Below are positions 6,549-49,448 of a stretch of 49,448 nt of DNA, one piece after another. A model generated the notes under the pieces. That model was not told where the DNA came from, searched no databases, and saw only the letters and a list, made by a program, of their open reading frames with translations. Location of the stretch: positions 1 through 49,448 of the forward strand of contig CAYMNZ010000003.1 of NCBI GenBank assembly GCA_964391975.1, given 5' to 3'. Source of the stretch: an uncultured Candidatus Saccharibacteria bacterium (GTDB lineage Bacteria > Patescibacteriota > Minisyncoccia > Phycocordibacterales > Phycocordibacteraceae). The number at the start of each line of letters is the position of its first letter. Position 1 is the stretch's first letter. The position numbers and the translations under genes were made by a program.

Positions 6549-8063
6549 ATGGACAATCCCGATCGGGTAACGTACTTCGCCGCAACCGATACACGCGGCA
6601 AGCGCATCCCATTCGGTATCAAACAGAAGGACCGCGCCCGTCACATGTACGTGATTGGGAAGTCGGGAACAGGGAAGTCGACCATGCTCGAGAACATGGC
6701 GATTCAGGATATCCGCAACGGAGAAGGGTTCGCCTATCTCGACCCGCACGGAGGCTCGGCGGAAAAGCTTCTCGACTACATACCGCAGAACAGGGTTCGT
6801 GACGTGGTCTATTTCGCCCCCTACGAGACAGAACACCCGCTCTCGCTCAACGTTATTGAGGACGTGCCATATGAGAAGCGACACCTCGTGCTCTCAAGTC
6901 TCATGTCCATCTTCCGCAGCATCTGGGCGGATGCGTGGAGTCCTCGGTTTGAGTATGTACTCACCAATACATTGCTTGCGCTCCTTGAGCACCCAGAAGC
7001 GACGCTGCTTTCGGTCACGCGCCTCTACAGTGACGATGCGTACCGCAAGGAGATTGCCGAGAACTTGCGTGACCCATCCGCTAAGAAGTTCTGGGTGGAA
7101 GAGTTCCCGACCGCAACCGATGCGCCGTTCAAGGAAGCGGTCTCTGCGCTCGTGGGGAAGATAGACCAGATTGCGCTTGATCCTCTTATGCGCGACATCA
7201 TCGGGCAGCCACGCTCTTCGTTCAACATGCGCACGCTCATGGACGAGCGGAAGATTCTCCTTATTAGTCTTCCGAAGGGTCTCGTTGGTGAGACCAACAT
7301 GCAGCTCATCGGCAGTATTCTTGCGACCCGTATTTTCTTAGCTGCGATGAGTCGTGCAGATGTGCCTGCAAACCGGATGTCGCAGGTGCCGCACTTCTAT
7401 TTCTATGTTGATGAGTTTCAGAACTTTGCTAACTCTACGTTCTCAGAAATTCTTTCTGAATCTCGCAAATACAAACTCGACCTCCTTATCTCGCACCAGT
7501 ACATCGGGCAGATGGATGCAGGGGTGCGTGCGGCAGTTTTCGGCAACGTGGGTACACTCGTTACGTTCCGTGTCGGTCCTTTTGATGCGGAGGTGCTTGA
7601 GCGGGTCTTTGCCCCTGAGTTCAGCAAAGAGAACCTGATGAACCTGGGACGTGCGCAAATCTACCTCTCACTCATGATTGATAACGTGGGCTCGCGTCCT
7701 TTCTCGGCGCTTACCATAGCCGCCATAGAGGCGCCGCCTCGTTCCTGGAAGCAGGAAGTACGACGTGCCTCTGAAGAGCAGTTCTGCTCCAAGCATGAAC
7801 ACAAGCGGGTGCTTGCCCCGCTTCCTCCACACGTGGCTGCTGCAGGAGACCTTAAGTCGCTTGTCGGCGCCATGACTGAGATAGTGAGGCAGGATAAGGC
7901 TAAGGAGGTCTCTGAAAAGAAAGCAGAGCTCAAGGAGACGCTGGAGAAGGTGCTCGGTGAGGAACTACCCGACCCAGCTCATACGCTTCCGGAGCACACT
8001 GCCGCAAAGCCGTTTGAAGTTCCTGAGGAAGAACTACGCTCCGTCTTCAAGGAGGATGTATAA
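6549..8063 (+). CDS. Soluble TraD/TraG/VirD4-like (type IV coupling-protein-like) P-loop NTPase
   Basis: Walker A VIGKSGTGKST and Walker B-like HFYFYVDEFQNF. LLISHQYIGQ and the overall layout resemble T4SS coupling / HerA-FtsK-type ATPases. No N-terminal TM segment; acidic/Lys-rich C-tail. Confidence 0.7.
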   Translation: MDNPDRVTYFAATDTRGKRIPFGIKQKDRARHMYVIGKSGTGKSTMLENMAIQDIRNGEGFAYLDPHGGSAEKLLDYIPQNRVRDVVYFAPYETEHPLSLNVIEDVPYEKRHLVLSSLMSIFRSIWADAWSPRFEYVLTNTLLALLEHPEATLLSVTRLYSDDAYRKEIAENLRDPSAKKFWVEEFPTATDAPFKEAVSALVGKIDQIALDPLMRDIIGQPRSSFNMRTLMDERKILLISLPKGLVGETNMQLIGSILATRIFLAAMSRADVPANRMSQVPHFYFYVDEFQNFANSTFSEILSESRKYKLDLLISHQYIGQMDAGVRAAVFGNVGTLVTFRVGPFDAEVLERVFAPEFSKENLMNLGRAQIYLSLMIDNVGSRPFSALTIAAIEAPPRSWKQEVRRASEEQFCSKHEHKRVLAPLPPHVAAAGDLKSLVGAMTEIVRQDKAKEVSEKKAELKETLEKVLGEELPDPAHTLPEHTAAKPFEVPEEELRSVFKEDV

Positions 8064-9465
8064 ATACGCACTTATCGCTGCCGCGCTTTGCGGACTGTTT
8101 CCTGTAGCTGCGGATGCCGCCGTACGTGTGAACGAGATTGCGTGGATGGGTACCGACCTCGGAGGCGCGAACTGCGAATGGATTGAGCTCTACAACTCTG
8201 ACGCTGTCGTTGTTGACCTCTCGAGTTGGAGCATTGTCATCACGAATGCGGGAAGCGCGACGCCCAAGACGCTTGACCTTGGGGAGGACGCGAGTGTGAA
8301 GTACACCGGGATTGCGGGGAACGGGTTCTATGTTGTTGCGCGCAACACGGGGTCGTGCCCGTCGCTTGCACCAGGGCTGACGGCTGATTGGGTCGGGAGT
8401 TTCGGGAATGGCATTTCAAACAATGGAGCGAAGATAGAACTCTTCAATGGCATCGAGCTCGTTGATTCCGTAAGCTCGCTTTCGGGTTGGACAGTCTCTG
8501 GAGGGAAGGGAGGGAAGAATGACTCAGGAGAAGCTAAACAAACACCGCAGTATTCCGCAGGCAGCTGGATTACCGCCGTTCCAACACCACGCACCTTGAA
8601 TGCTTCTGCCCCAGTTGAGACCATTCCTGACGAAGAGGAAACAGACCCAGAGGCTCCTGTCGTTACAGTGGGGGGAACGACTCCTACAACCCCAGCAGCA
8701 AGCCCACTCATTAAGCTTTATCTTGATCCTGGTCCTGACCGTATTGTTTCTGTTGGAGCTGACACTCCGTATACCGCTACGGTCTACGACGGTACCGGGA
8801 AATTGCGACCGGATGCAGACGTCTCTTGGAACTTTGGTGATGGAGGGAGGAAGAGTGGCCGGTCTGTTACCTACGCGTATCGAGAGGCGGGGGAGTATCA
8901 CATGACCGTGCGTGCCAAGACTAGGGATCGCTCTACAATCGCTATGCTCACCATTGTGGCGTCGCCTGCGGAAGTCGCGATAGAAGAGGTTTCGGACCGA
9001 GGCATTGTGCTTGCCAACGGAAGCGACCGCATGCTCGACCTCTCGTCGTGGCGGTTGTCTTCCGGCAGGAAGAAGTTCGTCCTTCCTGAAGACACGGTTA
9101 TCCCGCCTGGAGCCTCGGTGCTGTTGCCTGCAGTCGTTACTGCGTTGCCCACCTCAAGCGCTCCCAAGCTTCTTTTCCCTAACGGCACGTTTGCGGTTGC
9201 CTACGAGGTGCAACCTGAGGTCGCCGGGGCGAGTATAGAAAAGGTACAGGAGGTCGTGCCTGTCCCGAAAGCCTCGGTAATTGTTCCCTCATATGCCGAA
9301 GACTCATACGCCCCCGTTGCGGTAGCCGACGCTCCCGTGGCGGGGGCGGCGTTGCCGCAGACCGGGAACGTATTTCTTAAGGGTGAGTACACTCCCTCGC
9401 TCTGGGGCATCGGGACGCTCGTCGAGGGCATCCTTGCTTCCGTTGCCTCATTCATCGTACGCTGA
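8056..9465 (+). CDS. Cell-surface protein: signal peptide, lamin-tail domain (LTD), PKD-like domain, second LTD-like region, LPQTG sorting signal
   Basis: Start moved to ATG 8056 (signal peptide MYKYALIAAALCGLFPVAADA); it overlaps the upstream stop (ATGTATAA). LTD signature VRVNEIAWMG…CEWIELYN…DLSSWSI. PKD signature VSWNFGDGG…YAYREAGEYHMTV. Second DLSSWRL motif. C-terminal LPQTG, then a hydrophobic stretch, then R. Confidence 0.75.
   Translation: MYKYALIAAALCGLFPVAADAAVRVNEIAWMGTDLGGANCEWIELYNSDAVVVDLSSWSIVITNAGSATPKTLDLGEDASVKYTGIAGNGFYVVARNTGSCPSLAPGLTADWVGSFGNGISNNGAKIELFNGIELVDSVSSLSGWTVSGGKGGKNDSGEAKQTPQYSAGSWITAVPTPRTLNASAPVETIPDEEETDPEAPVVTVGGTTPTTPAASPLIKLYLDPGPDRIVSVGADTPYTATVYDGTGKLRPDADVSWNFGDGGRKSGRSVTYAYREAGEYHMTVRAKTRDRSTIAMLTIVASPAEVAIEEVSDRGIVLANGSDRMLDLSSWRLSSGRKKFVLPEDTVIPPGASVLLPAVVTALPTSSAPKLLFPNGTFAVAYEVQPEVAGASIEKVQEVVPVPKASVIVPSYAEDSYAPVAVADAPVAGAALPQTGNVFLKGEYTPSLWGIGTLVEGILASVASFIVR
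9352..9366 (+). other. LPQTG sortase-type sorting motif within CDS 8056..9465
   Basis: TTG CCG CAG ACC GGG reads L-P-Q-T-G in frame. It is followed by 32 aa containing the hydrophobic LWGIGTLVEGILASVASFIV and a terminal Arg. Confidence 0.5.
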
Positions 9466-33423: not shown

Positions 33424-33432
33424 TTATCCACA
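33424..33432 (+). promoter_or_regulatory. Perfect consensus DnaA box TTATCCACA in the murB / histone-like intergenic region
   Basis: Exact 9-mer read in the sequence. It is a single copy, so chance cannot be excluded. Confidence 0.3.
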
Positions 33433-33566: not shown

Positions 33567-33689
33567 ATGGCAGCAAAAAAGAGGAAGGCCGCAAAGAAGG
33601 CACCGGCTAAGAAGTCCGTCAAGCGCAAGGCAGTGAAGAAGACCGTCAAGCGCAAGGCAACGAAGAAGTCCGCAAAGAAGCGCGCATAA
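33567..33689 (+). CDS. 40-aa Lys/Ala-rich histone H1-like (Hc1/AlgP-tail-like) basic protein
   Basis: MAAKKRKAAKKAPAKKSVKRKAVKKTVKRKATKKSAKKRA has 17 K + 4 R in 40 aa and no acidic residue. It sits inside the track ORF 33444..33689, whose N-terminal 41 aa look non-coding. A strong terminator follows. Confidence 0.55.
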   Translation: MAAKKRKAAKKAPAKKSVKRKAVKKTVKRKATKKSAKKRA

Positions 33690-38702: not shown

Positions 38703-38725
38703 AGGCCCCGCTGGGGCCTTTTTTG
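38703..38725 (+). terminator. Rho-independent terminator after gatB
   Basis: Stem AGGCCCC (38703-38709) / GGGGCCT (38713-38719), followed by TTTTTGT. Confidence 0.8.
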
Positions 38726-38773
38726 TACCTGGATAGGCGAGAATGTTTACATCTCTTCTATCCGAGATGAAAT

Positions 38774-39553
38774 ATGTATATACTTCAGGCAATGGATGAG
38801 CTCGTCATAGGGGAGAAGAAGTACATTTCGTCGAAGAAGGCGGCAGAGCTTACGGGCTATGCCAAGGACTACATTGGTCAGCTTTGTAGAGAGGGGCGCG
38901 TAGAGGCACGCCTGGTGGGGCGTAGCTGGTACGTACTAGAGAGCTCAATCGCAGAACATCGCTTCGGGAAGCAGGAAGAAGTGGTAAAAGAACCAGAGGC
39001 TGAGGAGTCAGAAGTTGTAGAGGAGTCAGGATGGAAGTCCCCGAGGTACGTTACAGAGACGGTAGCAACGCTCCCAGAGCTTATAGAGCGCCCACGAGCA
39101 CCTCTACCTAGTAGCCTCAATCTTCTTGCAAGGGATAGAAATATTATCTCGGCTGCCGATATAGCTAGTAATCAGGCCGAAGTAGAGCTAGTTCCAATTT
39201 CTCGGCAAGAAGAGCCGGCTGAAGAACCTCCGGCTGCACCTCAAGGAGACGACGAAGAGGTCTCTGTTACTTTGCATAGGGTTGCACCTCACGTCGCTCC
39301 ACAAACCAAGGATATGGACGTCATTGTCCCTACACCTGCCCCAAGACGCCATCTAGAGACGCAAGTTGAGCCTAGAAAGATAAGAAAACAGGGAAGCCTG
39401 GTCAAATCATCCATAGTGATAGCTATTGCGCTCGTTGCAATCAGCATAATGCTCCTAGGAACCGGGGCAGCGGACCGTTACCTACTTCCAGCAGCACAAG
39501 AATCAGGTTTAATAAAATATCTCGGTGGGAAGAGTACCTATATTAAGCAGTAA
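38774..39553 (+). CDS. Tail-anchored membrane protein with N-terminal excisionase/MerR-type HTH-like module, acidic Pro-rich linker and C-terminal TM helix
   Basis: YISSKKAAELTGYAKDYIGQLCREGRVEARLVGRSWYVLESSI fits the HTH_17-type pattern (…GR.W.v….l). The linker is rich in E/P. TM SSIVIAIALVAISIMLLGTG lies near the C-terminus (~39405-39470). The start could instead be ATG 38792. Confidence 0.7.
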   Translation: MYILQAMDELVIGEKKYISSKKAAELTGYAKDYIGQLCREGRVEARLVGRSWYVLESSIAEHRFGKQEEVVKEPEAEESEVVEESGWKSPRYVTETVATLPELIERPRAPLPSSLNLLARDRNIISAADIASNQAEVELVPISRQEEPAEEPPAAPQGDDEEVSVTLHRVAPHVAPQTKDMDVIVPTPAPRRHLETQVEPRKIRKQGSLVKSSIVIAIALVAISIMLLGTGAADRYLLPAAQESGLIKYLGGKSTYIKQ

Positions 39554-39653
39554 ATAAAGTGTTTCTCGTCTCGTAAAAACAAGAATATATAAAATAGTCA
39601 CCACTCCCTATAGTCCCCTTGTAAATTTTTTACTACCAAGAGCAGAAACTAAT

Positions 39654-39683
39654 GCGTCTAGCGTCTGCTAGGCGTATTTTTTA
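39654..39683 (+). terminator. Probable intrinsic terminator of gene 38774..39553
   Basis: Stem GCGTCTAGC (39654-39662) / GCTAGGCGT (39667-39675) with G-U wobbles, loop GTCT, tail ATTTTTTA. Confidence 0.55.
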
Positions 39684-39799
39684 TCGCACTCTCCTAGATA
39701 AAGTGAGTTATTTACTTACTTTCTGCTGCTTGAGAGAAATTTTCTAAGCCGATAAGCGTTGTCGGAGCACTCTTCATTTTGGAATTCGCAGGAATTCTT

Positions 39800-39829
39800 T
39801 TGATAAATTCTTTCTAAACAAAATATAAA
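39800..39829 (+). promoter_or_regulatory. Candidate sigma70-type promoter for the giant gene (TTGATA-N18-TATAAA)
   Basis: -35 TTGATA at 39800-39805 and -10 TATAAA at 39824-39829, in the AT-rich 357-bp intergenic region. Flanked by GGAATTC direct repeats (39781-39787, 39791-39797). Confidence 0.35.
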
Positions 39830-39910
39830 AATTTTATCCCCATCATTTTATATTTTTTTAAGTAAAGTGGGAGATTATCGCATAAACTATGTGTAAGTCG
39901 GATAGCCGAT

Positions 39911-42900
39911 ATGACTACTCCTCTCAACACCAATTTGATTTCCACGAAGCACGCTTCGGAAATTTCTGGATACCATCCGGACTACATTGGTCGACTCTGT
40001 CGGTCAGGAAAAATTAACTCAACTCAGTTCGGACGCAGCTGGCTCGTTGACCGCGATTCCCTTGTTGCATTTTGTAAGACTCAAGACCAAAAGAAAAAAG
40101 AAAGTGCCGAAGAGCTCTCCCGTATACGTGAACAAGAATACCAAGTTGCACGTAACGGTCACAGTGGTCACGTATCGCTCAAAACGACCTCTAGAACTCC
40201 TGCAGTGCGTAATCGGGGGAAGAGTATCCCAAGTCCTTTTTTCGATAATGCTGTCGCAACGCTTGTCGCGCTTGTTGTTGGAACAGCAAGCTTGTATGCA
40301 CTTCATTCTCCAGTCGGGCAGTTTGTTGGCACGAAAGCGCTTGAGGTCACGTCTACCACGGCGCTTGGTGTTCGAATCCTCGCGGCGGACCTTCCGGCGT
40401 GGCCGACCATTGATCGGCATACGACTGCTAATGCAACGGTTGGGCTGCAGGCTCCAATTTTTACAGGACCAATCGTTATTCCGTCAGTTGCACAAACCGA
40501 CGTAACTACCGGATATATAGCTGTATCGGATACCGACCTTCCTCTAGAAAACGATGTAAACACTAAAGGTCGGCTGCAAAGTATTCCAGTCGCAAGCCTT
40601 GTAGCTTCAGCGGGTAATGCTCTCGCTAATCCGCAAGGTACCCTTACGGATATATATATAGGTATAGGAGAAAGTGTTCATTCGCTCATAGTTGGGGGGC
40701 TCGAGACGTATACCAACGGATTGGCCGATGCGGGCAACCTTTGGATTGAGAGTGGCTACTCTGCACGTGACGCATTGTTCGCGCTCGGTGAGTCTGGACT
40801 CGCCGCAGAGCTCAGTTTAGGGAATGGCACTATCCGAACAGCAGAGGCTATTCTCGATGCACACGAAGTTGGAATCTATGGATTTATCGAGTCGACCCCA
40901 CAAATTTCTCTTGCGGTACTCAAAACTGCCCATGCGATAGGGGACACCGTGGCGTCTGCGGTTGCGTCGGTCCCCCCAAGCCTCGCCAGTGGGTACGATG
41001 GTGCAGTGGTGGGTTGGGTGGAAGGCTCATTAGGTGTCGCTTCCTCTATGGAGAGGAACCTCCTTGCTGCAGCCCACAACATCAACCAAGCAGGGGACTC
41101 CATCCGCACCGCGTACCTAGAGGCCATTAATGGCACTGGCTCGCTGGCCTACGAAAATGCAAATGGAGTCGTTTCGGGCACGCGTGCCACTGGTCAGGCG
41201 CTCGCGCTCGCATTCTCTGGGGAGGGGCCAGATTTTGTTGCATTGGTCACGCAGCAGCGCGATGTTTTCGGCTCAACAGTTCAAGAACGCTCAGACTCAC
41301 AAAGTGCTAGTGGTGCGCTTGCTGCAGCGACTGCAGAGGCTTCCATATATAAGGTGGGGGAAGATGTGGCGCTTTACACGTACGTCACCATCAACAACCT
41401 GTTCTACAAAGGACTCTCGGCCGTCGCTTCACTTTTCAAACAAGCACCAGTCGCGTTCGTACCTCTGCCACAAGGCGACACAACGTCAGCGGGCACGAGC
41501 TCCTCGTACTCTATTATTTCGCAGACGCCGGTTCAGAACATTGTTAACCAGATTACGATACAGGGTGTCACGTTTGATTATCTCGAGCGTCGTCTTCGAG
41601 AGACACGTTCAAGTATTCTCGATAGTCGTGCAATCTCGAACAACTCTTCGAATTCGAATAGCGGAGGCGGAGGGTCGGGAAGTGTGACATCAGTTGATGC
41701 GTCGGGTGGTACGACCGGGCTCACATTTACGGGCGGTCCAATTACTTCAACAGGAACACTCACACTTTCTGGCACACTCAATCTCATCAACGGAGGAACT
41801 GGACTCACTAGCTACACCGCAGGTGACATTCTCTATGCGGATGGCAGCGGCAATCTTGCAAAACTTCCAGTAGGCTCTGCAGGCCAAGTACTTAAAGTGA
41901 CCGCCGGATTCCCGGCATGGGGAGCTGACATTAGCGCAAGTGGTGGGGCTGGTGCATGGGCAACGACGACTGACAGTCTTGCTGTTTATCCCACTGACAC
42001 TTCGAATGTCGTCATTATTGGCAGTAACGCTACCTCAACAACTGGAAATATCTTTGAGGTGGTTGGCAACGCACTCTTCCGTGGAGCAATCACTACGTAC
42101 AACGTACTCACTGCATCGAATTTCACTTCCACCTCAACAACCGCAATCAACACGTTCCCGAATCTCTCGACAACCAACGCGACCTCGACTGGCTCTCTCT
42201 ATATCACACCGCTCGGCACTGCAGCCGGTACATTCCTTGCGGTTGATGCAAACGGTCGGGTGATTGCAACGACCTCACCACTTGCGGCAGCGGTGACGTC
42301 CATCGGTCCTGCAGGACAGACGGCAGACGGCCCAGCTGTCACGTTTGCCACCTCTTCAACCGCTTTCAATGGATTGACGCCTAATCTCACCATCACTGGC
42401 TCGGGTGATACCCTAACGTATACTTCCGCACTTTCCGGAACACTAGGCGTTGGTGGAGGAGGAACTGGCCAGACCACATTCACTTCAGGTCAGCTGCTCT
42501 ACGGCAACGGCACTGCTGCACTCTCTTCGGTCGCAACAACCTCTCTCACGCTCGCTTCTGAGTTCTCACACTCTGGCACTATTGGCTCTCTCATCGGCGG
42601 CGCAGCTGGAACTCTTTCTCTTACGAACAGCGGCGTCGCACTCACCAAACTCGCACAGATTGCTGCAAACTCGATCCTCGGCAATCTCACGGGAGCGACA
42701 GGGAACGTAACGGCAATTGCAACGTCTTCTCTCGGTATTGCTCTTAGTGATACGACTGGCACGCTCGCCGTGAATAGGGGAGGCACTGGCGCCGCAACGT
42801 TCACCAACAATCGTTTGCTAACCGGCAATGGTACGAGTGCGCTTGTCGATGAAGCGAACCTTACTTTTGATGGTTCGCTTCTGACCGTTACTGGAAACGC

Positions 42901-45900
42901 CTCAACGACCGGTATCAGTTCTTCTTACGCATCTTCAACGAATGCATTCTTCGGTAATCTCTCAATCGGTTCGCTCACAGGAATTCTTAAGGCAACCGCT
43001 GGTGTCGTTTCAACAGCAACTGCGGGCGTCGACTTCGAAAATCCACTCTCCTTTATATATCCACTTGTTCGTTCGGTAGATTCCATCTCTCTTGCCTTCG
43101 GCACCACAACTGCCAACAGCTGGAGCGCACACAATATATTTAGCTCACTTTTTGCGACAAACGCATCTACGACCAATGCAACGACGACCGGTACGCAATA
43201 CATAACGCCGCTCGGTACCGCAGCTGGCGCATTTTTGGCAGTTGATCCTACCGGAAAGGTTATTGCTACTAGTACGCCTTCTGGTGGTTCGGGCATCACT
43301 GCCATCGGTCCTACCGGACAAACCGCAGATGGCCCAACAGTCACTTTTGCGACTTCAACGAGTGCTAACAACGGCCTCACACCAAACCTTGTTATTACCG
43401 GTTCTGGCGACACTCTTACCTATACCTCCTCACTCTCCGGCACCCTCACGAATGCCGGTCTCGCAAACTCAACTGTTTCCTACGGAGGCGTAACACTCTC
43501 GCTCGGAGGAAGTGATGCCACTCCAGCCTTCGACCTCACTGATGCAACGAACCTTCCAATCGTTGCGGGCACCACTGGCACCCTCACGGTCGCGCGAGGC
43601 GGCACGGGCCAAACTTCGTTCACCTCAAGCCAACTTCTCTACGGCAATGGCACTGCTGCACTCTCGAGTGTTGCCACTACATCCCTCACGCTCGCTTCTG
43701 AGTTCTCGCACTCTGGCACTATCGGTTCCTTGATTGGTGGCGCTGCCGGCACACTCTCCCTTACAAATAATGGCGTTGCGCTCACGAAACTTGCGCAAAT
43801 CGCTGCCAACTCGATTCTCGGCAACCTGACCGGAGCAACAGGGGACGTTACCGCGATTGCGACCTCTTCCTTATATACAGGCACGCCTGGCCAGGTGTTG
43901 GCGAGAGTTGGCTCGACATGGGTAGGAGTTGCAACGACTACTGCAGGAACTGGCCTCACATATGACGGGACATCATTCAATGTCGATTCGTCGCAGTTCA
44001 CCCCAACCACTCGTACGCTCACAGTCGCGGGGACCGCAAACCAAATCACTTCTTCTGCAGGTGCCCAAGATCTTTCGGCCAACCGCACGTGGACGCTCTC
44101 GCTCCCATCCCATGTCGTTTTCCCTGGGAACTTCCAGGTAACGAACTCAACGACCACGAACGCGACAACGACCGCACTTGATGTGACGGGACTCCTTACC
44201 TTCGGTGGAGTGACAGGAAACAGTTGGGATGACTTCTGCACCACTATTACTGGTGGCTCAGGTCTCTGTGATGGCGTAGACAACACGGGTGGAGGTGCTG
44301 GGCTCGCGACGTCAACAGATATCGCAGATACTCAAATAATCTATGGCACCAGCGCATCGGACGTAGGATCGGAAGCGGTGTTTACCTACGACGACGCAAC
44401 TGACAGGCTCACGGTCATTAATGCCTCCACCACCAACATCAGTGCCTCCTATGCATCTTCAACCCAAGGATTCTTTGGCAACCTCTCGATAGGAAACCTT
44501 ACTGGATTCCTCAAGGCGACCGCGGGCGTTGTCTCCACTGCAACTATTGATCTCGTGAACGATGTCGGGTCTTCCATTCTTGCGGTGGTCAATGGCGGTA
44601 CAGGATGGGGCAATATCACCGCTAATGCGATTCTCTTGGGTAATGGCACGAGTAGACTTGCCACCACCTCTGCGGGAACGAATGGTCAGGTGCTCGCTCT
44701 TGTCGGAGGAGTGCCAACGTGGACCGCAACTACAACTGCAGGCACAGGCCTCACATACTCGGGGGGTGCATTCAACGTCAATACATCACAAAACATCGCT
44801 ACACTTTCCAACCTCACCTCAGATGGTGTCGTCTACACGTCAGGTGGCGCAGGTACGCTCAACGTAGATTCTGGGGCTCTTGATGTTGCGCGGGGAGGTA
44901 CAGGGCAGGCGACCTTCACCTCAAGCCAACTCCTCTACGGCAACGGCACATCTGCACTCTCATCAGTTGCCACAACCTCGCTCACACTTGCTTCTGAGTT
45001 TTCTCACTCAGGCACCATTGGTTCCTTAATAGGAGGAAGTGCAGGAACTCTCTCACTTACCAACAATGGTGTTGCACTTACAAAACTTGCGCAGATTGCC
45101 GCTAACTCCATTCTTGGAAACATAACTGGCGCAGCAGGGAACGTCACAGCTTTCGCGACTTCCTCGCTCGGGATTGCGTTGAGCGACACCACTGGCACGC
45201 TCGCAGTAGATAGGGGAGGCACTGGGGCGGCCACCTTCACGGACAACCGCATCCTCACCGGCAACGGTACAAGCGCACTTGTTGACGAAGCAAACCTCAC
45301 CTTCGATGGTTCTCTCCTTACGGTGACGGGAAACGCTTCGACCACGCAGCTCACGACCACGGGCAGTAGCTATCTTGCAACAATGGGGGGGAATGTGGGG
45401 GTTGGTACCACCTCGCCATGGGGCAGGTTCTCCATAAACAATTCGACGAATGACCCAGCTGGGCAGCCGCTGTTCGTGATCGCGAGCTCCACTGCGAGCG
45501 CGACAACAACACTCCTTAGCGTGAGAAATGACGGAGCGCTGCTCGTATTTGATGGAACCAGTAACGGTTCCACTAAATCGATTGGTTTCCAGAGCCAGCC
45601 TGACCTAGGCTTCTTCCGTCGTGCAGCGAATCGCATTACATTTGGGGAAAATACTGGCAATTTGGAGTTCGTGTCCTCTGGCACCAATGACGGCATACGA
45701 TTGGCTGGAGGAGCCGATATAATCTGGACCAGTACATCGCTTGCTTCAGGAACGGATGATACCTTTTTCCATCGTGTTGCTGCCGGTACTGTCGGTGTGG
45801 GTACTGCAAGTGCCGGCCAAGCGGGGTTGATGTCAGGCACCTTCGCCGCCGAACGTCTCGGCCTTGGTACTACCACTCCGTACGCCCAGCTCTCCATAGT

Positions 45901-48900
45901 CGCCACCTCAACAAACGGTGTAGGCGCACCAACCACTTTGTTCGCCATCGCATCGACCACGGCAGGGACGGCGACTTCAACGCTGTTCTCTATAGGAAAT
46001 ACAGGAACCATCACTACGGTTCTCGGCACCCCTGCCGGCACTTTCCTAGCTGCAGATCCGTCAGGTAACATCATCGCCACCACCTCTCCAAGCAGTGGGG
46101 GAATCACAGCGATCGGTCCTACTGGCCAGACCGCAGATGGCCCAACAGTCACGTTCGCAACTTCATCGACCGCCTTCAACGGCCTTACCCCAGGCCTCAC
46201 TATCACAGGCTCAGGAGACACACTGACTTTTGCTTCCGCACTCTCCGGCACACTCGACAACGCAGGACTTACAAACAGCACTGTCTCGTATGGTGGCGTC
46301 TCGCTCGCGCTTGGTGGAAGCGACGCCACTCCGGCATTCGACCTCACTGATGCAACGAACCTTCCAATCGTTGCGGGCACCACTGGCACGCTCACCGTCG
46401 CGCGAGGCGGCACAGGACAAACCACATTCACATCTGGTCAACTGCTCTACGGCAACGGTACAGCAGCGCTCTCGAGTGTTGCCACAACCTCTCTCACTCT
46501 CGCTTCTGAGTTCTCACACTCAGGAACTATTGGTTCCTTGATTGGCGGCGTCGCAGGAACGCTCTCGCTGACTAACAACGGCGTTGCACTCACCAAGCTC
46601 GCGCAGATTGCAGCGAACTCGATTCTTGGAAACGTAACTGGTGCAGCCGGGAACGTAACTGCAATTGCGACTTCATCGCTCGGCATCGCAATCTCTGACA
46701 CCACCGGCACCCTTGCTGTTGATAGGGGAGGCACTGGCGCAGCGACCTTCACCAACAACCGCGTCCTCACCGGTAACGGCACGAGCGCACTGGTTGATGA
46801 AGCGAACCTCACCTTCGACGGCACTATACTTTCAACGCCAAGCCTTTCCGTAGCCAATGCAACCAGCACCGACTCGCTCTACATCACGCCGCTTGGTACT
46901 GCGGCCGGCACCTTCCTTGCTGCAGACCCAACTGGACGCATCATCGCTACCACGACTCCTTCAAGTAGCGGCGGCATCACCGCCATCGGCCCGGCCGGAC
47001 AAACCGCAGATGGCCCGACGGTCACGTTTGCCACCTCAACAAGTGCCAACAATGGCCTCACCCCGAATCTTGTCATTACCGGTTCAGGTGACACTCTCAC
47101 GTATACCTCCTCTCTCTCGGGCACTCTCACGAACGCGGGTCTCGCAAACTCCACAGTCTCCTACGGCGGCGTCACTCTCTCTCTCGGCGGCTCAGATGCA
47201 ACTCCTGCCTTCAACCTCGTAGATGCCACGGGCCTCCCAATCTCAACCGGCGTCTCAGGACTCGGCACTGGGGTTGCCACAGCGCTCGGTGTCAACGTCG
47301 GCACCGCTGGATCGTTTGTTGTGAATGGTGGGGCACTTGGCACGCCGTCCTCGGGTACACTCACCAACGCCACGGGGCTCCCAATCTCGACCGGTGTTTC
47401 GGGTCTTGCGGCTGGTATCGCCACATGGCTAGGCACTCCGTCGTCCGCAAACCTCATAACTGCAGTCACCGACGAAACAGGATCAGGTGCCCTTGTCTTT
47501 GCAACGAGTCCATCCTTCACCACTCCAATTCTTGGCACTCCTACGTCAGCAACCCTCACCAATGCAACCGGCCTCCCAATCTCAACCGGCGTCTCGGGAC
47601 TGGGTACTGGTGTGGCAACGTTCCTCGGAACGCCGTCGAGCGCGAACCTAATTACCGCAGTTACTGACGAAACTGGCTCTGGCGCTCTTGTCTTCGGCAC
47701 GAGCCCTACTATTTCTGGTGCCACCCTCTCGGGAAACGTAAGTCTTGCAAATGCCACTTCCACTAACCACTTCGTCCAGACACTTTCCGCAAACACGGCG
47801 CGCTTCGGTCAGACCGCCACCTCCTCCTTCGCTTCCACTGGTGCACTTACGCTTGCAACCGCACTCACCGTTGCAAACGGAGGCACGGGCGCAACCACGC
47901 TCACTGGCATGCTCAAAGGCAACGGAACTAGCGCATTCACTGCCGGGGTAGATGGTACAGACTTCACGCTTACTAACGCCATCACATGTACTAACCAGGC
48001 CATTACTGCTGTCACCGCTGCAGGAGTATCGACCTGTTCATCTATTAACGACGCCTACTGGTCAGGCACCGACCTCTCGGTTGCCAACGGAGGCTCTGGC
48101 GCCTCAACGCTGACGGGTATTCTCCTTGGAAACGGCACTTCAGCCTTTACCGGACTTACCACCTCTGCGGGCATTAGTGGCGCGCTTTCGGACGAAACTG
48201 GCTCTGGCGCTCTCGTCTTTGCAACGAGTCCGTCGTTTACAACACCAGCACTCGGTACGCCATCTTCAGGAACTCTTACCAACGCAACGGGTCTTCCAAT
48301 CTCAACTGGTGTTTCGGGACTGGGCACTGGTGTCGCGACATTCCTCGGAACACCGTCGTCAGCGAACCTTCGTACCGCGCTTACAGACGAGACGGGCACA
48401 GGAGCTGCTGTATTCGCTGACGCTCCTACACTCACCAGTACGCTAACGCATACTGGACAGATATTCGCCAACACAAACGCTACCAACTTCGTGCTGACTG
48501 GTTTGACTGACATCTATGTAGATCTCGACAACGACAGTAACGGCACAAACTCATTTATTATTAGGAACGGATCCGACGTGGCTGCGCTCACCCTTACTGA
48601 GGGCGGAGTCCTCACCACGGGAGGTGATATCTCAGTCGGCGGCGGTACCGGGAAAATTACCGTCGGTACAATCGACCCGGTCTATACGATAGATGGGGTT
48701 AATTACGCAACGTACGTCGCTGGCATGGTGGGACAGAAGGAAGAGGTGACTGGCACCGCTGATGTCGTGACGCCGACGACGGCAGCTGACGGCAGTACGG
48801 GCTACTCCTACACGGTTGATTTTGACGAGGAGATGGCGGGCAACGACCTCTGGCTCTTCTCTCAGGCGTCACATCTACGCAAGAACATCGACAAGCTCGT

Positions 48901-49448
48901 CGTGCTCCTCTCAGCAGAAGGAGGGACTAAGGTGTGGTACAACGTCGACCGCGCAAACCGGAAAGTGTACTTCCTTTCCGATGTACCGACACGCGTTTCC
49001 TACCGCATGACGGCTCCTCGGTTCGACTACGAGACATGGACGAACTACAACCAGGATGCGGTTAACGGATTCGTACCACCGTACGATGACCTCGATGATT
49101 ACTTTGATGACAGTAGCGATATGTTCTCCTTCAGCAATACCAACCTGCTGTCAGGCACCACAACCCTTGCGGACCTTATCGAGCAGGTACCGGAAGACGA
49201 GGAGGGAGAGACGAAACCGTGGATGGGTGCACTTGCGGGCGTGAGCACTGGACTTAAGGAGGCGATGGACTCATTGACGGAGGTGACAATCAACGCCTTT
49301 GAAGGTGCGCAGTACTACGCTGACGGCATCTTCAAGCGCATCTTCGCGCAAGAAGTGCACACCGACCAGCTCTGTGTCTCCGACGAGACAGGAGAGACCT
49401 GCATCACGCGTGCACAGCTTAATGATCTGCTTGCGGGAGCAGCAGCCT
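39911..49448 (+). CDS. Giant membrane-anchored repeat protein, 3'-partial (>=3,179 codons): HTH-like module + TM helix + tail-fibre-like Thr/Gly/Ser/Asn-rich ectodomain. NOT in the supplied ORF track
   Basis: I translated frame 2 codon by codon from ATG 39911 to base 49447 and met no stop. The upstream in-frame stop is TAA 39863-39865, with no alternative start between. The protein repeats are coherent, and all listed ORFs in this span are out-of-frame or antisense. Confidence 0.9.
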   Translation, partial: MTTPLNTNLISTKHASEISGYHPDYIGRLCRSGKINSTQFGRSWLVDRDSLVAFCKTQDQKKKESAEELSRIREQEYQVARNGHSGHVSLKTTSRTPAVRNRGKSIPSPFFDNAVATLVALVVGTASLYALHSPVGQFVGTKALEVTSTTALGVRILAADLPAWPTIDRHTTANATVGLQAPIFTGPIVIPSVAQTDVTTGYIAVSDTDLPLENDVNTKGRLQSIPVASLVASAGNALANPQGTLTDIYIGIGESVHSLIVGGLETYTNGLADAGNLWIESGYSARDALFALGESGLAAELSLGNGTIRTAEAILDAHEVGIYGFIESTPQISLAVLKTAHAIGDTVASAVASVPPSLASGYDGAVVGWVEGSLGVASSMERNLLAAAHNINQAGDSIRTAYLEAINGTGSLAYENANGVVSGTRATGQALALAFSGEGPDFVALVTQQRDVFGSTVQERSDSQSASGALAAATAEASIYKVGEDVALYTYVTINNLFYKGLSAVASLFKQAPVAFVPLPQGDTTSAGTSSSYSIISQTPVQNIVNQITIQGVTFDYLERRLRETRSSILDSRAISNNSSNSNSGGGGSGSVTSVDASGGTTGLTFTGGPITSTGTLTLSGTLNLINGGTGLTSYTAGDILYADGSGNLAKLPVGSAGQVLKVTAGFPAWGADISASGGAGAWATTTDSLAVYPTDTSNVVIIGSNATSTTGNIFEVVGNALFRGAITTYNVLTASNFTSTSTTAINTFPNLSTTNATSTGSLYITPLGTAAGTFLAVDANGRVIATTSPLAAAVTSIGPAGQTADGPAVTFATSSTAFNGLTPNLTITGSGDTLTYTSALSGTLGVGGGGTGQTTFTSGQLLYGNGTAALSSVATTSLTLASEFSHSGTIGSLIGGAAGTLSLTNSGVALTKLAQIAANSILGNLTGATGNVTAIATSSLGIALSDTTGTLAVNRGGTGAATFTNNRLLTGNGTSALVDEANLTFDGSLLTVTGNASTTGISSSYASSTNAFFGNLSIGSLTGILKATAGVVSTATAGVDFENPLSFIYPLVRSVDSISLAFGTTTANSWSAHNIFSSLFATNASTTNATTTGTQYITPLGTAAGAFLAVDPTGKVIATSTPSGGSGITAIGPTGQTADGPTVTFATSTSANNGLTPNLVITGSGDTLTYTSSLSGTLTNAGLANSTVSYGGVTLSLGGSDATPAFDLTDATNLPIVAGTTGTLTVARGGTGQTSFTSSQLLYGNGTAALSSVATTSLTLASEFSHSGTIGSLIGGAAGTLSLTNNGVALTKLAQIAANSILGNLTGATGDVTAIATSSLYTGTPGQVLARVGSTWVGVATTTAGTGLTYDGTSFNVDSSQFTPTTRTLTVAGTANQITSSAGAQDLSANRTWTLSLPSHVVFPGNFQVTNSTTTNATTTALDVTGLLTFGGVTGNSWDDFCTTITGGSGLCDGVDNTGGGAGLATSTDIADTQIIYGTSASDVGSEAVFTYDDATDRLTVINASTTNISASYASSTQGFFGNLSIGNLTGFLKATAGVVSTATIDLVNDVGSSILAVVNGGTGWGNITANAILLGNGTSRLATTSAGTNGQVLALVGGVPTWTATTTAGTGLTYSGGAFNVNTSQNIATLSNLTSDGVVYTSGGAGTLNVDSGALDVARGGTGQATFTSSQLLYGNGTSALSSVATTSLTLASEFSHSGTIGSLIGGSAGTLSLTNNGVALTKLAQIAANSILGNITGAAGNVTAFATSSLGIALSDTTGTLAVDRGGTGAATFTDNRILTGNGTSALVDEANLTFDGSLLTVTGNASTTQLTTTGSSYLATMGGNVGVGTTSPWGRFSINNSTNDPAGQPLFVIASSTASATTTLLSVRNDGALLVFDGTSNGSTKSIGFQSQPDLGFFRRAANRITFGENTGNLEFVSSGTNDGIRLAGGADIIWTSTSLASGTDDTFFHRVAAGTVGVGTASAGQAGLMSGTFAAERLGLGTTTPYAQLSIVATSTNGVGAPTTLFAIASTTAGTATSTLFSIGNTGTITTVLGTPAGTFLAADPSGNIIATTSPSSGGITAIGPTGQTADGPTVTFATSSTAFNGLTPGLTITGSGDTLTFASALSGTLDNAGLTNSTVSYGGVSLALGGSDATPAFDLTDATNLPIVAGTTGTLTVARGGTGQTTFTSGQLLYGNGTAALSSVATTSLTLASEFSHSGTIGSLIGGVAGTLSLTNNGVALTKLAQIAANSILGNVTGAAGNVTAIATSSLGIAISDTTGTLAVDRGGTGAATFTNNRVLTGNGTSALVDEANLTFDGTILSTPSLSVANATSTDSLYITPLGTAAGTFLAADPTGRIIATTTPSSSGGITAIGPAGQTADGPTVTFATSTSANNGLTPNLVITGSGDTLTYTSSLSGTLTNAGLANSTVSYGGVTLSLGGSDATPAFNLVDATGLPISTGVSGLGTGVATALGVNVGTAGSFVVNGGALGTPSSGTLTNATGLPISTGVSGLAAGIATWLGTPSSANLITAVTDETGSGALVFATSPSFTTPILGTPTSATLTNATGLPISTGVSGLGTGVATFLGTPSSANLITAVTDETGSGALVFGTSPTISGATLSGNVSLANATSTNHFVQTLSANTARFGQTATSSFASTGALTLATALTVANGGTGATTLTGMLKGNGTSAFTAGVDGTDFTLTNAITCTNQAITAVTAAGVSTCSSINDAYWSGTDLSVANGGSGASTLTGILLGNGTSAFTGLTTSAGISGALSDETGSGALVFATSPSFTTPALGTPSSGTLTNATGLPISTGVSGLGTGVATFLGTPSSANLRTALTDETGTGAAVFADAPTLTSTLTHTGQIFANTNATNFVLTGLTDIYVDLDNDSNGTNSFIIRNGSDVAALTLTEGGVLTTGGDISVGGGTGKITVGTIDPVYTIDGVNYATYVAGMVGQKEEVTGTADVVTPTTAADGSTGYSYTVDFDEEMAGNDLWLFSQASHLRKNIDKLVVLLSAEGGTKVWYNVDRANRKVYFLSDVPTRVSYRMTAPRFDYETWTNYNQDAVNGFVPPYDDLDDYFDDSSDMFSFSNTNLLSGTTTLADLIEQVPEDEEGETKPWMGALAGVSTGLKEAMDSLTEVTINAFEGAQYYADGIFKRIFAQEVHTDQLCVSDETGETCITRAQLNDLLAGAAA
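39935..40063 (+). other. HTH-like module of the giant protein, paralogous to 38822..38950
   Basis: LISTKHASEISGYHPDYIGRLCRSGKINSTQFGRSWLVDRDSL versus YISSKKAAELTGYAKDYIGQLCREGRVEARLVGRSWYVLESSI gives 21/43 identical residues, ungapped (counted by hand). Confidence 0.6.
40250..40309 (+). other. Predicted single transmembrane helix of the giant protein
   Basis: AVATLVALVVGTASLYAL is preceded by a basic segment (RNRGKS), which implies an N-in / C-out topology. Confidence 0.6.
42200..47220 (+). repeat. In-frame composite super-repeats inside the giant gene (modules A, A', B, D, E)
   Basis: Module A (YITPLGTAAGTFLAVD…ITAIGPxGQTADGPxVTFATS…ITGSGDTLTY) occurs at about 42200, 43199, 46027 and 46877. 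Module B (…RGGTGQTxFTSxQLLYGNGTAALSSVATTSLTLASEFSHSGTIGSLIGG…LTKLAQIAANSILGN…) occurs at about 42448, 43583, 44878 and 46390. Module D (YASSTxxFFGNLSIGxLTGxLKATAGVVSTAT) occurs at about 42925 and 44445. Confidence 0.85.
47221..48420 (+). repeat. Second repeat family in the giant gene (~65-aa unit ATGLPISTGVSGLGTGVATFLGTPSSANLITAVTDETGSGALVFATSPSFTTPxLGTPSSGTLTN)
   Basis: Copies begin at about 47227, 47371, 47566 and 48286, with a partial copy at about 48170. The spacing 47371 to 47566 is 195 nt. Confidence 0.8.

Follow-up and report, generated by a model that had tools for sequence, protein, structure and literature searches.

Why should two neighbouring genes of an ultra-small bacterium, one encoding a small protein and the other a giant surface protein, both begin with a domain of DNA-binding type and both continue into the membrane? 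The question arises in the 49,448-nt stretch of DNA analysed here (the window), where the two genes lie on the same strand:

38774..39553, + strand: ORF of the small HTH-TM gene, 259 aa counted from the opening of the ORF
38792..39553, + strand: small HTH-TM protein gene from its probable true start, M7
39911..49448, + strand: giant HTH-TM repeat protein gene, from the ATG at 39911 past the window end

The cassette belongs to Kaiserbacteria-type Paceibacteria, a group of the Patescibacteria with ultra-small cells. Patescibacteria (CPR) are abundant, mostly uncultured episymbionts whose host attachment and surface regulation are little understood. The small gene probably starts at M7 (38792), since its homologues all begin MDE(L/I). 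A spacer of 357 bp (39554-39910) separates it from the giant gene, whose ORF covers more than 3179 codons of the window and continues beyond its end. The complete giant protein (P0122) has 3273 aa, giants elsewhere reach 7214 aa, and searches of Pfam and PHROG placed the repeats of the giant in no family. The best explanation of the two products is that both are single-pass membrane proteins with an N-terminal winged helix of the Xis/BldC/MerR class.

The initial annotation had reported an N-terminal module common to the two proteins, and recomputation reproduced its count and coordinates exactly: YISSKKAAELTGYAKDYIGQLCREGRVEARLVGRSWYVLESSI of the small protein (nt 38822-38950) and LISTKHASEISGYHPDYIGRLCRSGKINSTQFGRSWLVDRDSL of the giant (nt 39935-40063) share 21/43 residues in an ungapped alignment. 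BLASTP of the small protein against the giant returned 29/78 identities (58.5 bits, E = 4e-14), and thus the similarity of these paralogous modules is far above chance. The modules extend as follows:

38795..38968, + strand: winged-helix module of the small protein, aa 8-65, AF2 pLDDT 94-97
39935..40072, + strand: winged-helix module of the giant, aa 9-54, HTH_17, pLDDT 95-97

In the AF2 models (pLDDT 94-98) both modules fold as a strand, helix, turn, helix, β-hairpin wing and C-terminal helix. The small module comprises strands 9-12 and 15-19, helices 20-27 and 31-40, wing strands 45-48 and 51-55, and a closing helix 56-64. The best Foldseek matches were Pukovnik Xis, BldC, TraN, RdfS, Tn916 Xis, RacA and GlnR, all of which bind double-stranded DNA. 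The top matches (Xis, BldC, TraN, RdfS and RacA) had probabilities of 0.9-1.0 and an rmsd of 1.5-2.5 Å, with target TM-scores of 0.67-0.75 for Pukovnik Xis (probability 1.0), 0.66-0.76 for BldC and 0.55-0.62 for RacA. Against Pfam HTH_17 (PF12728, gathering score 27 bits), the giant module scored alone reached 30.7 bits, above the gathering score, and the small module 23-26.5 bits, slightly under it; relatives of both modules scored 38-52 bits. PF12728 is precomputed in several homologues of the small protein, and the NCBIfam excisionase domain TIGR01764 also matched. TraN was the best sequence-profile match in the PDB (E = 0.005). A single-sequence search of the PDB with the small module gave no match, a word-indexed homology search with the first 140 aa of the giant gave one match only, and none of the profile or fold searches assigned a non-HTH fold. 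The profile matches, the confident AF2 models and the Foldseek matches bear out the proposal that the module belongs to the MerR-superfamily/excisionase type, and support a predicted HTH_17 winged helix of this class in both proteins.

Judging from the modelled fold, we think that the modules keep a putative ability to bind double-stranded DNA. The hallmarks of the family, a GR(x)W wing and a conserved Arg in the recognition helix, are retained. In alignment with BldC Arg30, which contacts a base (PMC5859096), giant-type modules have a conserved Arg and small-type modules an invariant Gln. The net charge of the modules is modest (medians 0 to +4), and in the tandem family described below the first module is neutral overall (net charge 0) and lacks the wing Arg. 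Within the family the small-type HTH is 78% identical, against just 35-40% for the whole proteins, and 33 of its positions are invariant among 90 sequences, on essentially all surfaces. This near-total invariance on every face suggests that the small module may have a protein partner too. In the extreme case the winged helix would not bind DNA at all; like the HTH of RodZ it would dock a cytoplasmic partner (the paralogous module, a cytoskeletal element or an export factor), or it would fix the N-in orientation and pace export of the giant. We consider such a co-option unlikely. The invariance over all surfaces and the neutral first module of the tandem family would suit it, but the close structural relatives all bind DNA and the DNA-contact hallmarks are kept.

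Downstream of the modules the two proteins differ in their linkers, and the following features were located:

39032..39076, + strand: short linear motif in the small linker, W87..P90.Y92..E95..P101, invariant or nearly so in 90 homologues
39395..39463, + strand: TM helix of the small protein, about aa 208-230, with a basic juxtamembrane stretch before it
39464..39550, + strand: exoplasmic tail of the small protein, 29 aa, with a conserved (D/K)(F/Y)LGGKSxY motif
40052..40165, + strand: long charged (E/K/R-rich) α-helix of the giant, aa 48-85, running on from the module, pLDDT 94-98
40235..40300, + strand: hydrophobic helix of the giant, aa 109-130

As the initial annotation had it, one TM helix follows the module in both proteins, the small linker is acidic and Pro-rich (28 D/E, 13 K/R and 17 P in aa 66-200), and the giant has a basic linker of about 55 aa (aa 55-109, 12 K/R vs 6 D/E). 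The small linker is disordered in the AF2 model and is followed by the basic juxtamembrane stretch PRRHLETQVEPRKIRKQG. For the small protein 'tail-anchored' is a borderline label, because 29 conserved residues come after its TM helix. The conserved short motifs of the small linker point to an adaptor role and would also fit a docking winged helix; against this, the cassette contains no conserved candidate partner gene.

The small proteins show a clear positive-inside bias (3.9 vs 1.2 K+R, N>C in 144/156), which places their module in the cytoplasm. The bias of the giant proteins is weak (1.5 vs 1.2), and here the lack of a signal peptide, together with the kind of ectodomain, points to an N-in orientation with a probably cytoplasmic module. 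Each protein therefore has the composition of a transmembrane transcription regulator, a DNA-binding-type domain plus a TM helix, with the domain cytoplasmic in the small protein and probably so in the giant. We read the hydrophobic helix of the giant as a signal-anchor, although a very long signal peptide with this helix as its H-region is possible. It is very unlikely, in our estimate, that the ~130-aa N-terminus of the giant is such a signal peptide or pro-region, or a substrate of intramembrane proteolysis, whose cleavage on export or fibre engagement would leave an HTH-TM stub or free the HTH to report to DNA in a Notch-/SREBP-like manner. The order of HTH, helix, basic stretch, H-region (AVATLVALVVGTASLYAL) and then HSP would permit this, the small residues (G-T-A) near the helix end are a candidate signal-peptidase site, the resulting stub would have the layout of the small protein, and giant adhesins of other bacteria do have extended signal peptides. 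However, these arguments are purely architectural, and neither the window nor locus L084 showed a gene for a site-2 protease or a rhomboid.

The pairing of the two genes is upheld by a survey of gene neighbourhoods in relatives, in which it is strongly conserved. The pair is present, in the position after gatB, in 68/69 informative loci, and in 70/74 informative loci of a sister family whose small protein carries two tandem modules. In pattern scans the two sister families gave matches in 222 and 185 species genomes; conservation in ~400 species indicates that the cassette is real. Clusters of module-bearing proteins number in the thousands. The initial annotation had named a non-HTH fold, absence of the pair from related genomes and a module outside the cell as grounds for abandoning its reading; what was found is an HTH fold, a conserved pair and a module that is inside by charge in the small protein and probably inside in the giant. 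Synteny is conserved with secA-obg-gatB, secA lying three genes upstream, and the surrounding genes are housekeeping envelope genes. No recombinase or mobile element lies near the locus. A mobile element or prophage was rejected on account of the housekeeping-gene synteny and a PHROGs search without meaningful match.

The conserved proximity of secA would be in keeping with a docking module that paces export, and the housekeeping envelope neighbourhood with a tether between nucleoid and envelope. The modules of such a tether would bind DNA with little specificity or at repeated sites and hold the chromosome under the fibres without controlling transcription, the small protein serving as a general DNA-membrane anchor and the giant being anchored to the nucleoid. 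In favour of a tether, the structural matches include RacA, a MerR-like chromosome anchor; some proteins have one or two modules in tandem, comparable to TraN, which binds dsDNA; and the linkers, long and either flexible or rigid, could reach DNA. A module on every copy of an abundant fibre also suits a structural function more than regulation. Nevertheless, a tether seems rather unlikely to us: the net charge of the modules is low for a non-specific DNA binder, and 1.13 Mb of flanks yielded no repeated chromosomal site.

The DNA around the two genes provides a further line of evidence, for which the relevant features are:

38703..38729, + strand: terminator-like hairpin and T-run after gatB
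38740..38791, + strand: small-gene promoter region, predicted from conserved sequence, which holds TATCCGAGATGAAAT
39564..39573, + strand: TCTCGTCTCG, 11 nt after the small-gene stop, in 43/72 loci
39651..39686, + strand: terminator-like hairpin of 12 pairs and T-run, ~100 nt after the small gene
39834..39842, + strand: TTATCCCCA, one mismatch from TTATCCACA (DnaA-box consensus)
39883..39888, + strand: predicted giant-gene promoter, -10-like TAAACT, with family variants TATTAT, TAAAAT and TAGAAT
39898..39909, + strand: TCGGATAGCCGA, the window's variant of the element ...TAGTTAATTCGGATATCCGAC-ATG, ending 1 nt before the giant's start codon

The hairpin after gatB implies a promoter dedicated to the small gene, and the one at 39651..39686 separate transcription of the giant gene. 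A -10-like TATACT lies 7 nt before the ATG at 38792, and the family consensus of the small-gene promoter is GTGCACAgCTCTTCCataCcAGCCGAGATAcgGCTATACT-N6-ATG; from its sequence, the small-gene transcript looks leaderless. TCTCGTCTCG is the reverse complement of CGAGACGAGA, which is common in small-gene promoters, and on the minus strand TTATTTA follows this reverse complement; together they look like a candidate antisense promoter. The spacer is AT-rich. An Rfam search of the spacer gave no known RNA family, only a chance match to ncr1575 (26 bits vs a threshold of 60).

In most loci a box of the TTATCCACA type is found at about -68 to -78 relative to the ATG of the giant gene. These boxes are not specific to the cassette, an exact copy being found at 33424, and were rejected as the cassette's own operator since an exact box is also conserved upstream of the secA operon. 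The universality of the DnaA-box consensus and the occurrence upstream of secA indicate that the boxes probably belong to another factor; the loci examined contain no dnaA gene. An oriC was likewise rejected, as there is usually one DnaA-like box per locus, no GC-skew switch, and the flanking genes are co-directional.

The element at the giant gene behaves differently from these boxes. In most loci 1-2 nt separate its end from the giant's ATG, and it contains the BldC-box-like AATTCGGA. Exact copies of TCGGATATCCGA number 29 in the small-giant spacers vs 0 in 1.13 Mb of flanks, and those of TAGTTAATTCGG 54 vs 2. The window's own copy reads AAGTCGGA instead of AATTCGGA; it is imperfect and not significant alone. 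Additional copies follow the small gene's stop and, in some loci, lie mid-spacer, and a related element precedes some HTH-giant genes that lack an adjacent small gene. Some other loci keep the arms of the element around a different centre. Variation in the left half of the 'palindrome' is not compensated, and a TCGG..CCGA hairpin, in RNA or DNA, is unlikely to be the main constraint, given the uncompensated TCGC..CCGA variants. Unlike most genes here, which look leaderless, the giant gene is preceded by a short, conserved leader, a typical operator position. The element could instead be a promoter, leader or translation signal for something else. A locus-specific element at the giant promoter is explained neither by a nucleoid tether nor by a winged helix that does not bind DNA.

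We tentatively favour membrane-tethered DNA binding that autoregulates the cassette as a candidate function, and rate it as possible rather than probable. Both proteins would act on their own locus from the membrane, as transmembrane transcription regulators do. Their proposed target is the conserved TCGG-containing element over the giant gene's transcription start and start codon, and occupancy of this site would tie cassette transcription to the fibre's production, export or surface state. For the small protein we propose the role of dedicated regulator or adaptor; it is built from a nearly invariant HTH, linear motifs in a flexible linker of ~140 aa, a TM helix and a conserved outer tail. 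The giant's HTH, held on a rigid charged helix under the membrane, would give feedback proportional to the number of fibre N-termini there. The conservation of the small-type HTH parallels the strong conservation of the DNA element. Against autoregulation, it is not obvious why a regulator need be fused to an ectodomain of 3000-7000 aa. If the fusion served sensing, a host-binding giant fibre would be wired via one TM helix to a DNA-binding domain, and fibre engagement, tension, export or proteolytic release would change operator occupancy at its own promoter, possibly together with the small paralogue. We regard this elaboration as decidedly unlikely; if true, a 3000-7000-aa surface filament of episymbiotic ultra-small bacteria would be connected to DNA by a Notch/SREBP-like or ToxR-like path.

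The cassette is thus a widely conserved syntenic two-gene unit in which a giant surface protein with a DNA-binding-type domain, probably cytoplasmic, is accompanied by a small partner with a nearly invariant copy of that domain, and connecting a cell-surface fibre with DNA may be its role. Should the modules bind DNA, the giant would be the largest known membrane-tethered DNA-binding protein, and the cassette would give cells that have very few classical signalling systems a simple route from surface to chromosome. Should they not, RodZ would be joined by a second, independent example of an HTH used as a membrane-proximal docking domain.

Among known systems, transmembrane transcription regulators have been surveyed as a class of 50,302 proteins, 151 of them with HTH_17 and 5597 entries with HTH_25 (Demey et al. 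2023, PMC10269533). The claim that no system of this layout had been described is therefore overstated with regard to HTH+TM proteins, RodZ included. For the module family and the small/giant cassette, the literature searches turned up no description. Classical MerR proteins combine the winged helix with a long antiparallel coiled-coil dimerisation helix and a C-terminal effector-binding region. Here no effector domain and no MerR or MerR_1 match was found in Pfam; the giant has a long helix (aa 48-85), the small protein a disordered linker.

RodZ resembles the present proteins in its N-terminal cytoplasmic HTH, basic juxtamembrane stretch, single TM helix and outer domain. It binds MreB, and thereby sets an HTH+TM precedent for protein docking without DNA binding; proteins with HTH_25 and DUF4115 are counted among HTH+TM proteins all the same, which lends the docking alternative some support. 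However, the HTH of RodZ is of the XRE type (HTH_25) and is accompanied by DUF4115, and neither domain matched here at E up to 10 in Pfam, so the present proteins lie outside the RodZ family.

RacA also ties DNA to the cell envelope with a MerR-like winged helix, a similarity of fold only. RacA reaches the membrane via a coiled coil and DivIVA, and Noc via an amphipathic helix. In contrast, the tether here is an integral TM helix, and one of its carriers is a giant surface protein. RacA acts at repeated GC-rich sites near the origin; in the 1.13 Mb of flanks no repeated site was found outside the locus.

BldC, Xis, RdfS and TraN have the same minimal MerR-like winged helix (target TM-score up to 0.76), with marginal sequence similarity (hhalign probability 26%), and the tandem-module relatives resemble the internal dimer of TraN. 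These proteins are small and soluble, whereas the present ones are membrane-anchored. The BldC family consists of stand-alone winged helices of ~70 aa that oligomerise head-to-tail on direct repeats of the AATTCGGAC type. The AATTCGGA of the giant-upstream element is the core of the BldC repeat, CAATTCGGAC (PMC5859096), although the candidate site here is an inverted repeat.

ToxR, TcpP and CadC are close in layout: a linker joins their cytoplasmic, N-terminal DNA-binding winged helix to one TM helix, beyond which lies an outer part. These regulators work on DNA while anchored in the membrane, as the present proteins could, and often form two-protein cassettes (ToxR/ToxS, TcpP/TcpH). Their winged helix is of the OmpR/PhoB type (Trans_reg_C), whereas Pfam finds HTH_17 only; Trans_reg_C and a sensor domain are absent, so the present proteins fall outside the ToxR/CadC family. 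In place of a periplasmic sensor domain the small protein has a 29-aa tail, its giant partner bears a repeat ectodomain of 3000-7000 aa and, as a further difference, both partners carry the DNA-binding-type module.

The small gene, which encodes an HTH-TM protein (259 aa), and the giant gene, which encodes an HTH-TM repeat protein, are co-oriented neighbours in a cell-envelope gene region that also carries MurD, MurI, MurC, glycosyltransferases, a flippase, a Wzy-like protein, MurB, SecA, Obg and GatB. The features of this cassette in the window are as follows.

38703-38719: terminator-like hairpin after gatB
38774..39553 (+): small ORF, likely start at 38792
39554-39910: AT-rich spacer between the small and giant genes
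39651-39678: second terminator-like hairpin, after the small gene
39911 (+) to beyond the window end: giant ORF, beginning with ATG; the full protein (P0122) has 3273 aa

The start at 38792 is preferred because all homologues begin MDE(L/I). Given the terminator-like hairpins and the intervening spacer, the two adjacent genes are probably separate transcription units. Elsewhere in the region, within the glycan-synthesis cluster, a 502-aa protein with lamin-tail and PKD domains (7957-9465, +) is a probable further surface protein; start codons of the ORFs around it are uncertain because neighbouring ORFs overlap by ~100 nt. Downstream of the window (L084, 19895-28340), the giant gene is followed by a gene whose 876-aa product has PG_binding, LamG, Ig-like and Hint domains; the next five proteins in a row (340-417 aa) belong to no Pfam family.

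The initial annotation held that the small and giant proteins begin with the same 43-residue module of excisionase type. The alignment reproduces 21 ungapped identities at exactly the positions it had assigned (BLASTP E = 4e-14), and both N-termini match Pfam HTH_17, in agreement with AlphaFold2 and Foldseek. The HTH_17 scores are 23-26.5 bits for the small module and 25-30.7 bits for the giant module against a gathering score of 27; relatives score 38-52 bits and also match the NCBIfam excisionase domain. Confident AlphaFold2 models of the small protein (90-sequence alignment; pLDDT 94-97 for aa 8-65) and of the first 150 residues of the giant (pLDDT 94-98 for aa 9-85) both show a strand, two helices, a β-hairpin wing and a further helix. 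Ranked by probability and target TM-score, the Foldseek matches are led by Pukovnik Xis, BldC, TraN, RdfS, Tn916 Xis, RacA and GlnR, all of them double-stranded DNA binders; the shortness of the domain keeps the E-values weak. TraN is also the best sequence match in a PDB search with a profile of 27 modules.

The linkers and hydrophobic helices described for both proteins are likewise present. The small protein continues from its module into a disordered linker, acidic and rich in proline, that bears conserved short motifs. Next come a basic stretch, the TM helix (208-230) and, at the end, a conserved tail of 29 aa. In the giant, the last module helix extends as a long charged helix to residue 85; between it and a hydrophobic helix (109-130) lies a short basic segment that is disordered. 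The orientation of the small protein is evident from its flanking charges: averaged over 156 small proteins, the 15 residues N-terminal to the TM helix contain 3.9 K+R versus 1.2 after it, with the N side richer in 144 and poorer in three. The charge bias of the giants is weak (1.5 versus 1.2), and we infer that their modules are cytoplasmic from the lack of an N-terminal signal peptide, the folded basic N-domain and the repeat-rich Thr/Ser/Gly ectodomain. Signal peptidase might nevertheless cut the giant near the end of its hydrophobic helix; a mechanism based on such cleavage or release appears very unlikely.

A core, A..gY..DY.g.L.R.g...G..W, is common to all 401 modules collected. Mean pairwise identity is 0.78 among small-type and 0.54 among giant-type modules, and cross-type scores fall far below those within types. 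The two types thus form separate conserved groups and, judged from these sequences, are old paralogues. Database relatives of the small protein number 1364; they are 250-310 aa long, align from end to end, and all come from Patescibacteria, Paceibacterota or Kaiserbacteria. Among species-representative genomes, a pattern scan detected it in 222. The pairing of the two genes also holds in relatives: of 69 loci with 1.5 kb or more of downstream sequence, 68 have a long same-strand ORF that follows the small gene within 1.3 kb. These ORFs carry a giant-type module at the N-terminus and reach >3200 aa, most of them running past the contig end. Many metagenome contigs end inside the homologous giant gene, probably because of its internal repeats; in the window (41700-49448) these are near-identical units of ~190 aa (…RGGTGQTSFTSSQLLYGNGT…), for which no Pfam or PHROG family was found.

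Cluster representatives found by an exhaustive search with the giant's module number 3756 at E <= 0.001, of which 574 reach E <= 1e-10. Some are giants of up to 7214 aa, and the top matches are mostly ~320-aa proteins with two tandem modules and a TM helix. This sister family, present in 185 further genomes, is likewise encoded after gatB, and a large HTH-TM gene comes next in 70 of 74 informative loci. In its small protein (loci L085-L164) the first module has a net charge of 0 and lacks the wing Arg, and the second has a net charge of +4. Some giants also carry two modules (P0209, P0143, P0150 and P0131 exemplify the sister family and the giants).

The spacer (median 586 bp) has 37% GC versus 53% for the loci, and it contains 10-mers that recur in most loci though the proteins are only ~35% identical. 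Blocks of five kinds are conserved across species (window 39554-39910; loci L004-L083). They are the TCTCGTCTCG block 3' of the small gene's stop, a TTATCC(A/C)CA box, the GCCGAAAT block, a -10-like box, and the TAGTTAATTCGGATATCCGAC block, unique to the spacer and immediately 5' of the giant's ATG, where the sequence reads ...TATTATTTAGTTAATTCGGATATCCGAC-ATG. Exact copies of TCGGATATCCGA number 29 within spacers and none in 1.13 Mb of flanks, and TAGTTAATTCGG occurs 54 times within spacers versus twice outside. The window's own copy of the pre-ATG element, TCGGATAGCCGA (39898-39909), is not significant alone and takes its weight from conservation across genomes. Further copies lie 3' of the small gene's stop and, in some loci, mid-spacer; the tandem family has a related element (...CTAGTAAAATAnTAGATAAATCGnnnaTCCGAaC...), and the element also precedes some HTH-giant genes distant from a small gene.

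The candidate binding site of the modules is TCGGATAGCCGA / TAGTTAATTCGGATATCCGAC. In the published BldC work, every protomer is reported to bind a 9-bp repeat within 5'-CAATTCGGACAATTCGGACA-3', with Arg30 contacting a base (PMC5859096). The conserved pre-ATG element (TCGG-N4-CCGA) includes AATTCGGA, and hhalign, at a probability of only 26%, places BldC Arg30 opposite an Arg conserved among giant-type modules and a Gln that is invariant in the small type. We take the BldC-like site and this alignment as a lead rather than proof. The analysis establishes the fold class, the domain order, the orientation of the small protein, the conservation of the pair and the locus-specific element; DNA binding and the assignment of sites are inferences. 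Our tentative reading, somewhat short of an even chance, is that the modules bind DNA at the membrane and act on regulatory DNA of the cassette itself; the small protein would then serve as dedicated regulator or adaptor, and feedback would come from the giant's module. A tether between nucleoid and envelope in the manner of RacA, itself among the structural matches, or of Noc seems unlikely beside an element this specific to the locus.

At most operon-first genes of the window, a TATAMT box precedes the ATG by 5-8 nt and there is no Shine-Dalgarno sequence (starts at 628, 3304, 6549, 14339, 16628, 30224, 33767 and 38792), which suggests that leaderless mRNAs are widespread in the source organism. 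The giant gene differs in having a short conserved leader. In many loci the small-gene promoter contains CGAGACGAGA (e.g. L015 9973, L037 4986, L059 9979), and its reverse complement lies just 3' of the small gene's stop (window 39564-39573), followed by a minus-strand TTATTTA. The pair may be an inverted repeat flanking the small gene or mark an antisense promoter; many other exact copies sit in the obg coding sequence.

The TTATCC(A/C)CA box, the canonical DnaA-box consensus (TTATCCACA), is located around -68 to -78 relative to the giant's ATG (window 39834-39842), and the tandem family has it in arrays of 11-bp period. An exact TTATCCACA copy in the murB-secA spacer (33424-33432) is conserved in ~55 of 72 loci, 6.1-6.5 kb upstream of the small gene's stop. 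It lies 5' of a 40-aa ORF (33567-33689, +) that is extremely lysine-rich (MAAKKRKAAKKAPAKKSVKRKAVKKTVKRKATKKSAKKRA) and resembles a histone H1-like nucleoid protein; this ORF has a terminator and a conserved promoter of its own. The box stands at a fixed distance 5' of two promoters, that of the secA operon and small basic protein and that of the giant gene. Because of the murB-secA copy we regard it as a more general promoter-upstream element, probably belonging to another factor; DnaA as a transcription factor, or another global factor, could act there. The spacer between the small and giant genes was rejected as a replication origin, having one box, no GC-skew switch and flanking genes that run in the same direction.

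In domain content the cassette proteins depart from three known families. They lack the Trans_reg_C domain of the ToxR/CadC family and the effector domain of classical MerR regulators, and so belong to neither. RodZ combines HTH_25 with DUF4115, and the cassette proteins have neither; a docking or topogenic role of RodZ type is unlikely. Large surface proteins of Patescibacteria have been noted only as putative adhesins (PMC11809585). The initial annotation knew of no system with this layout, which stands in part: our literature search found no description of the family or of any giant surface protein that begins with a cytoplasmic HTH. The wider class of proteins that join a DNA-binding domain to a TM helix has, however, already been surveyed; it comprises 50,302 proteins, 56% of them single-pass, with HTH_17 in 151 (PMC10269533).
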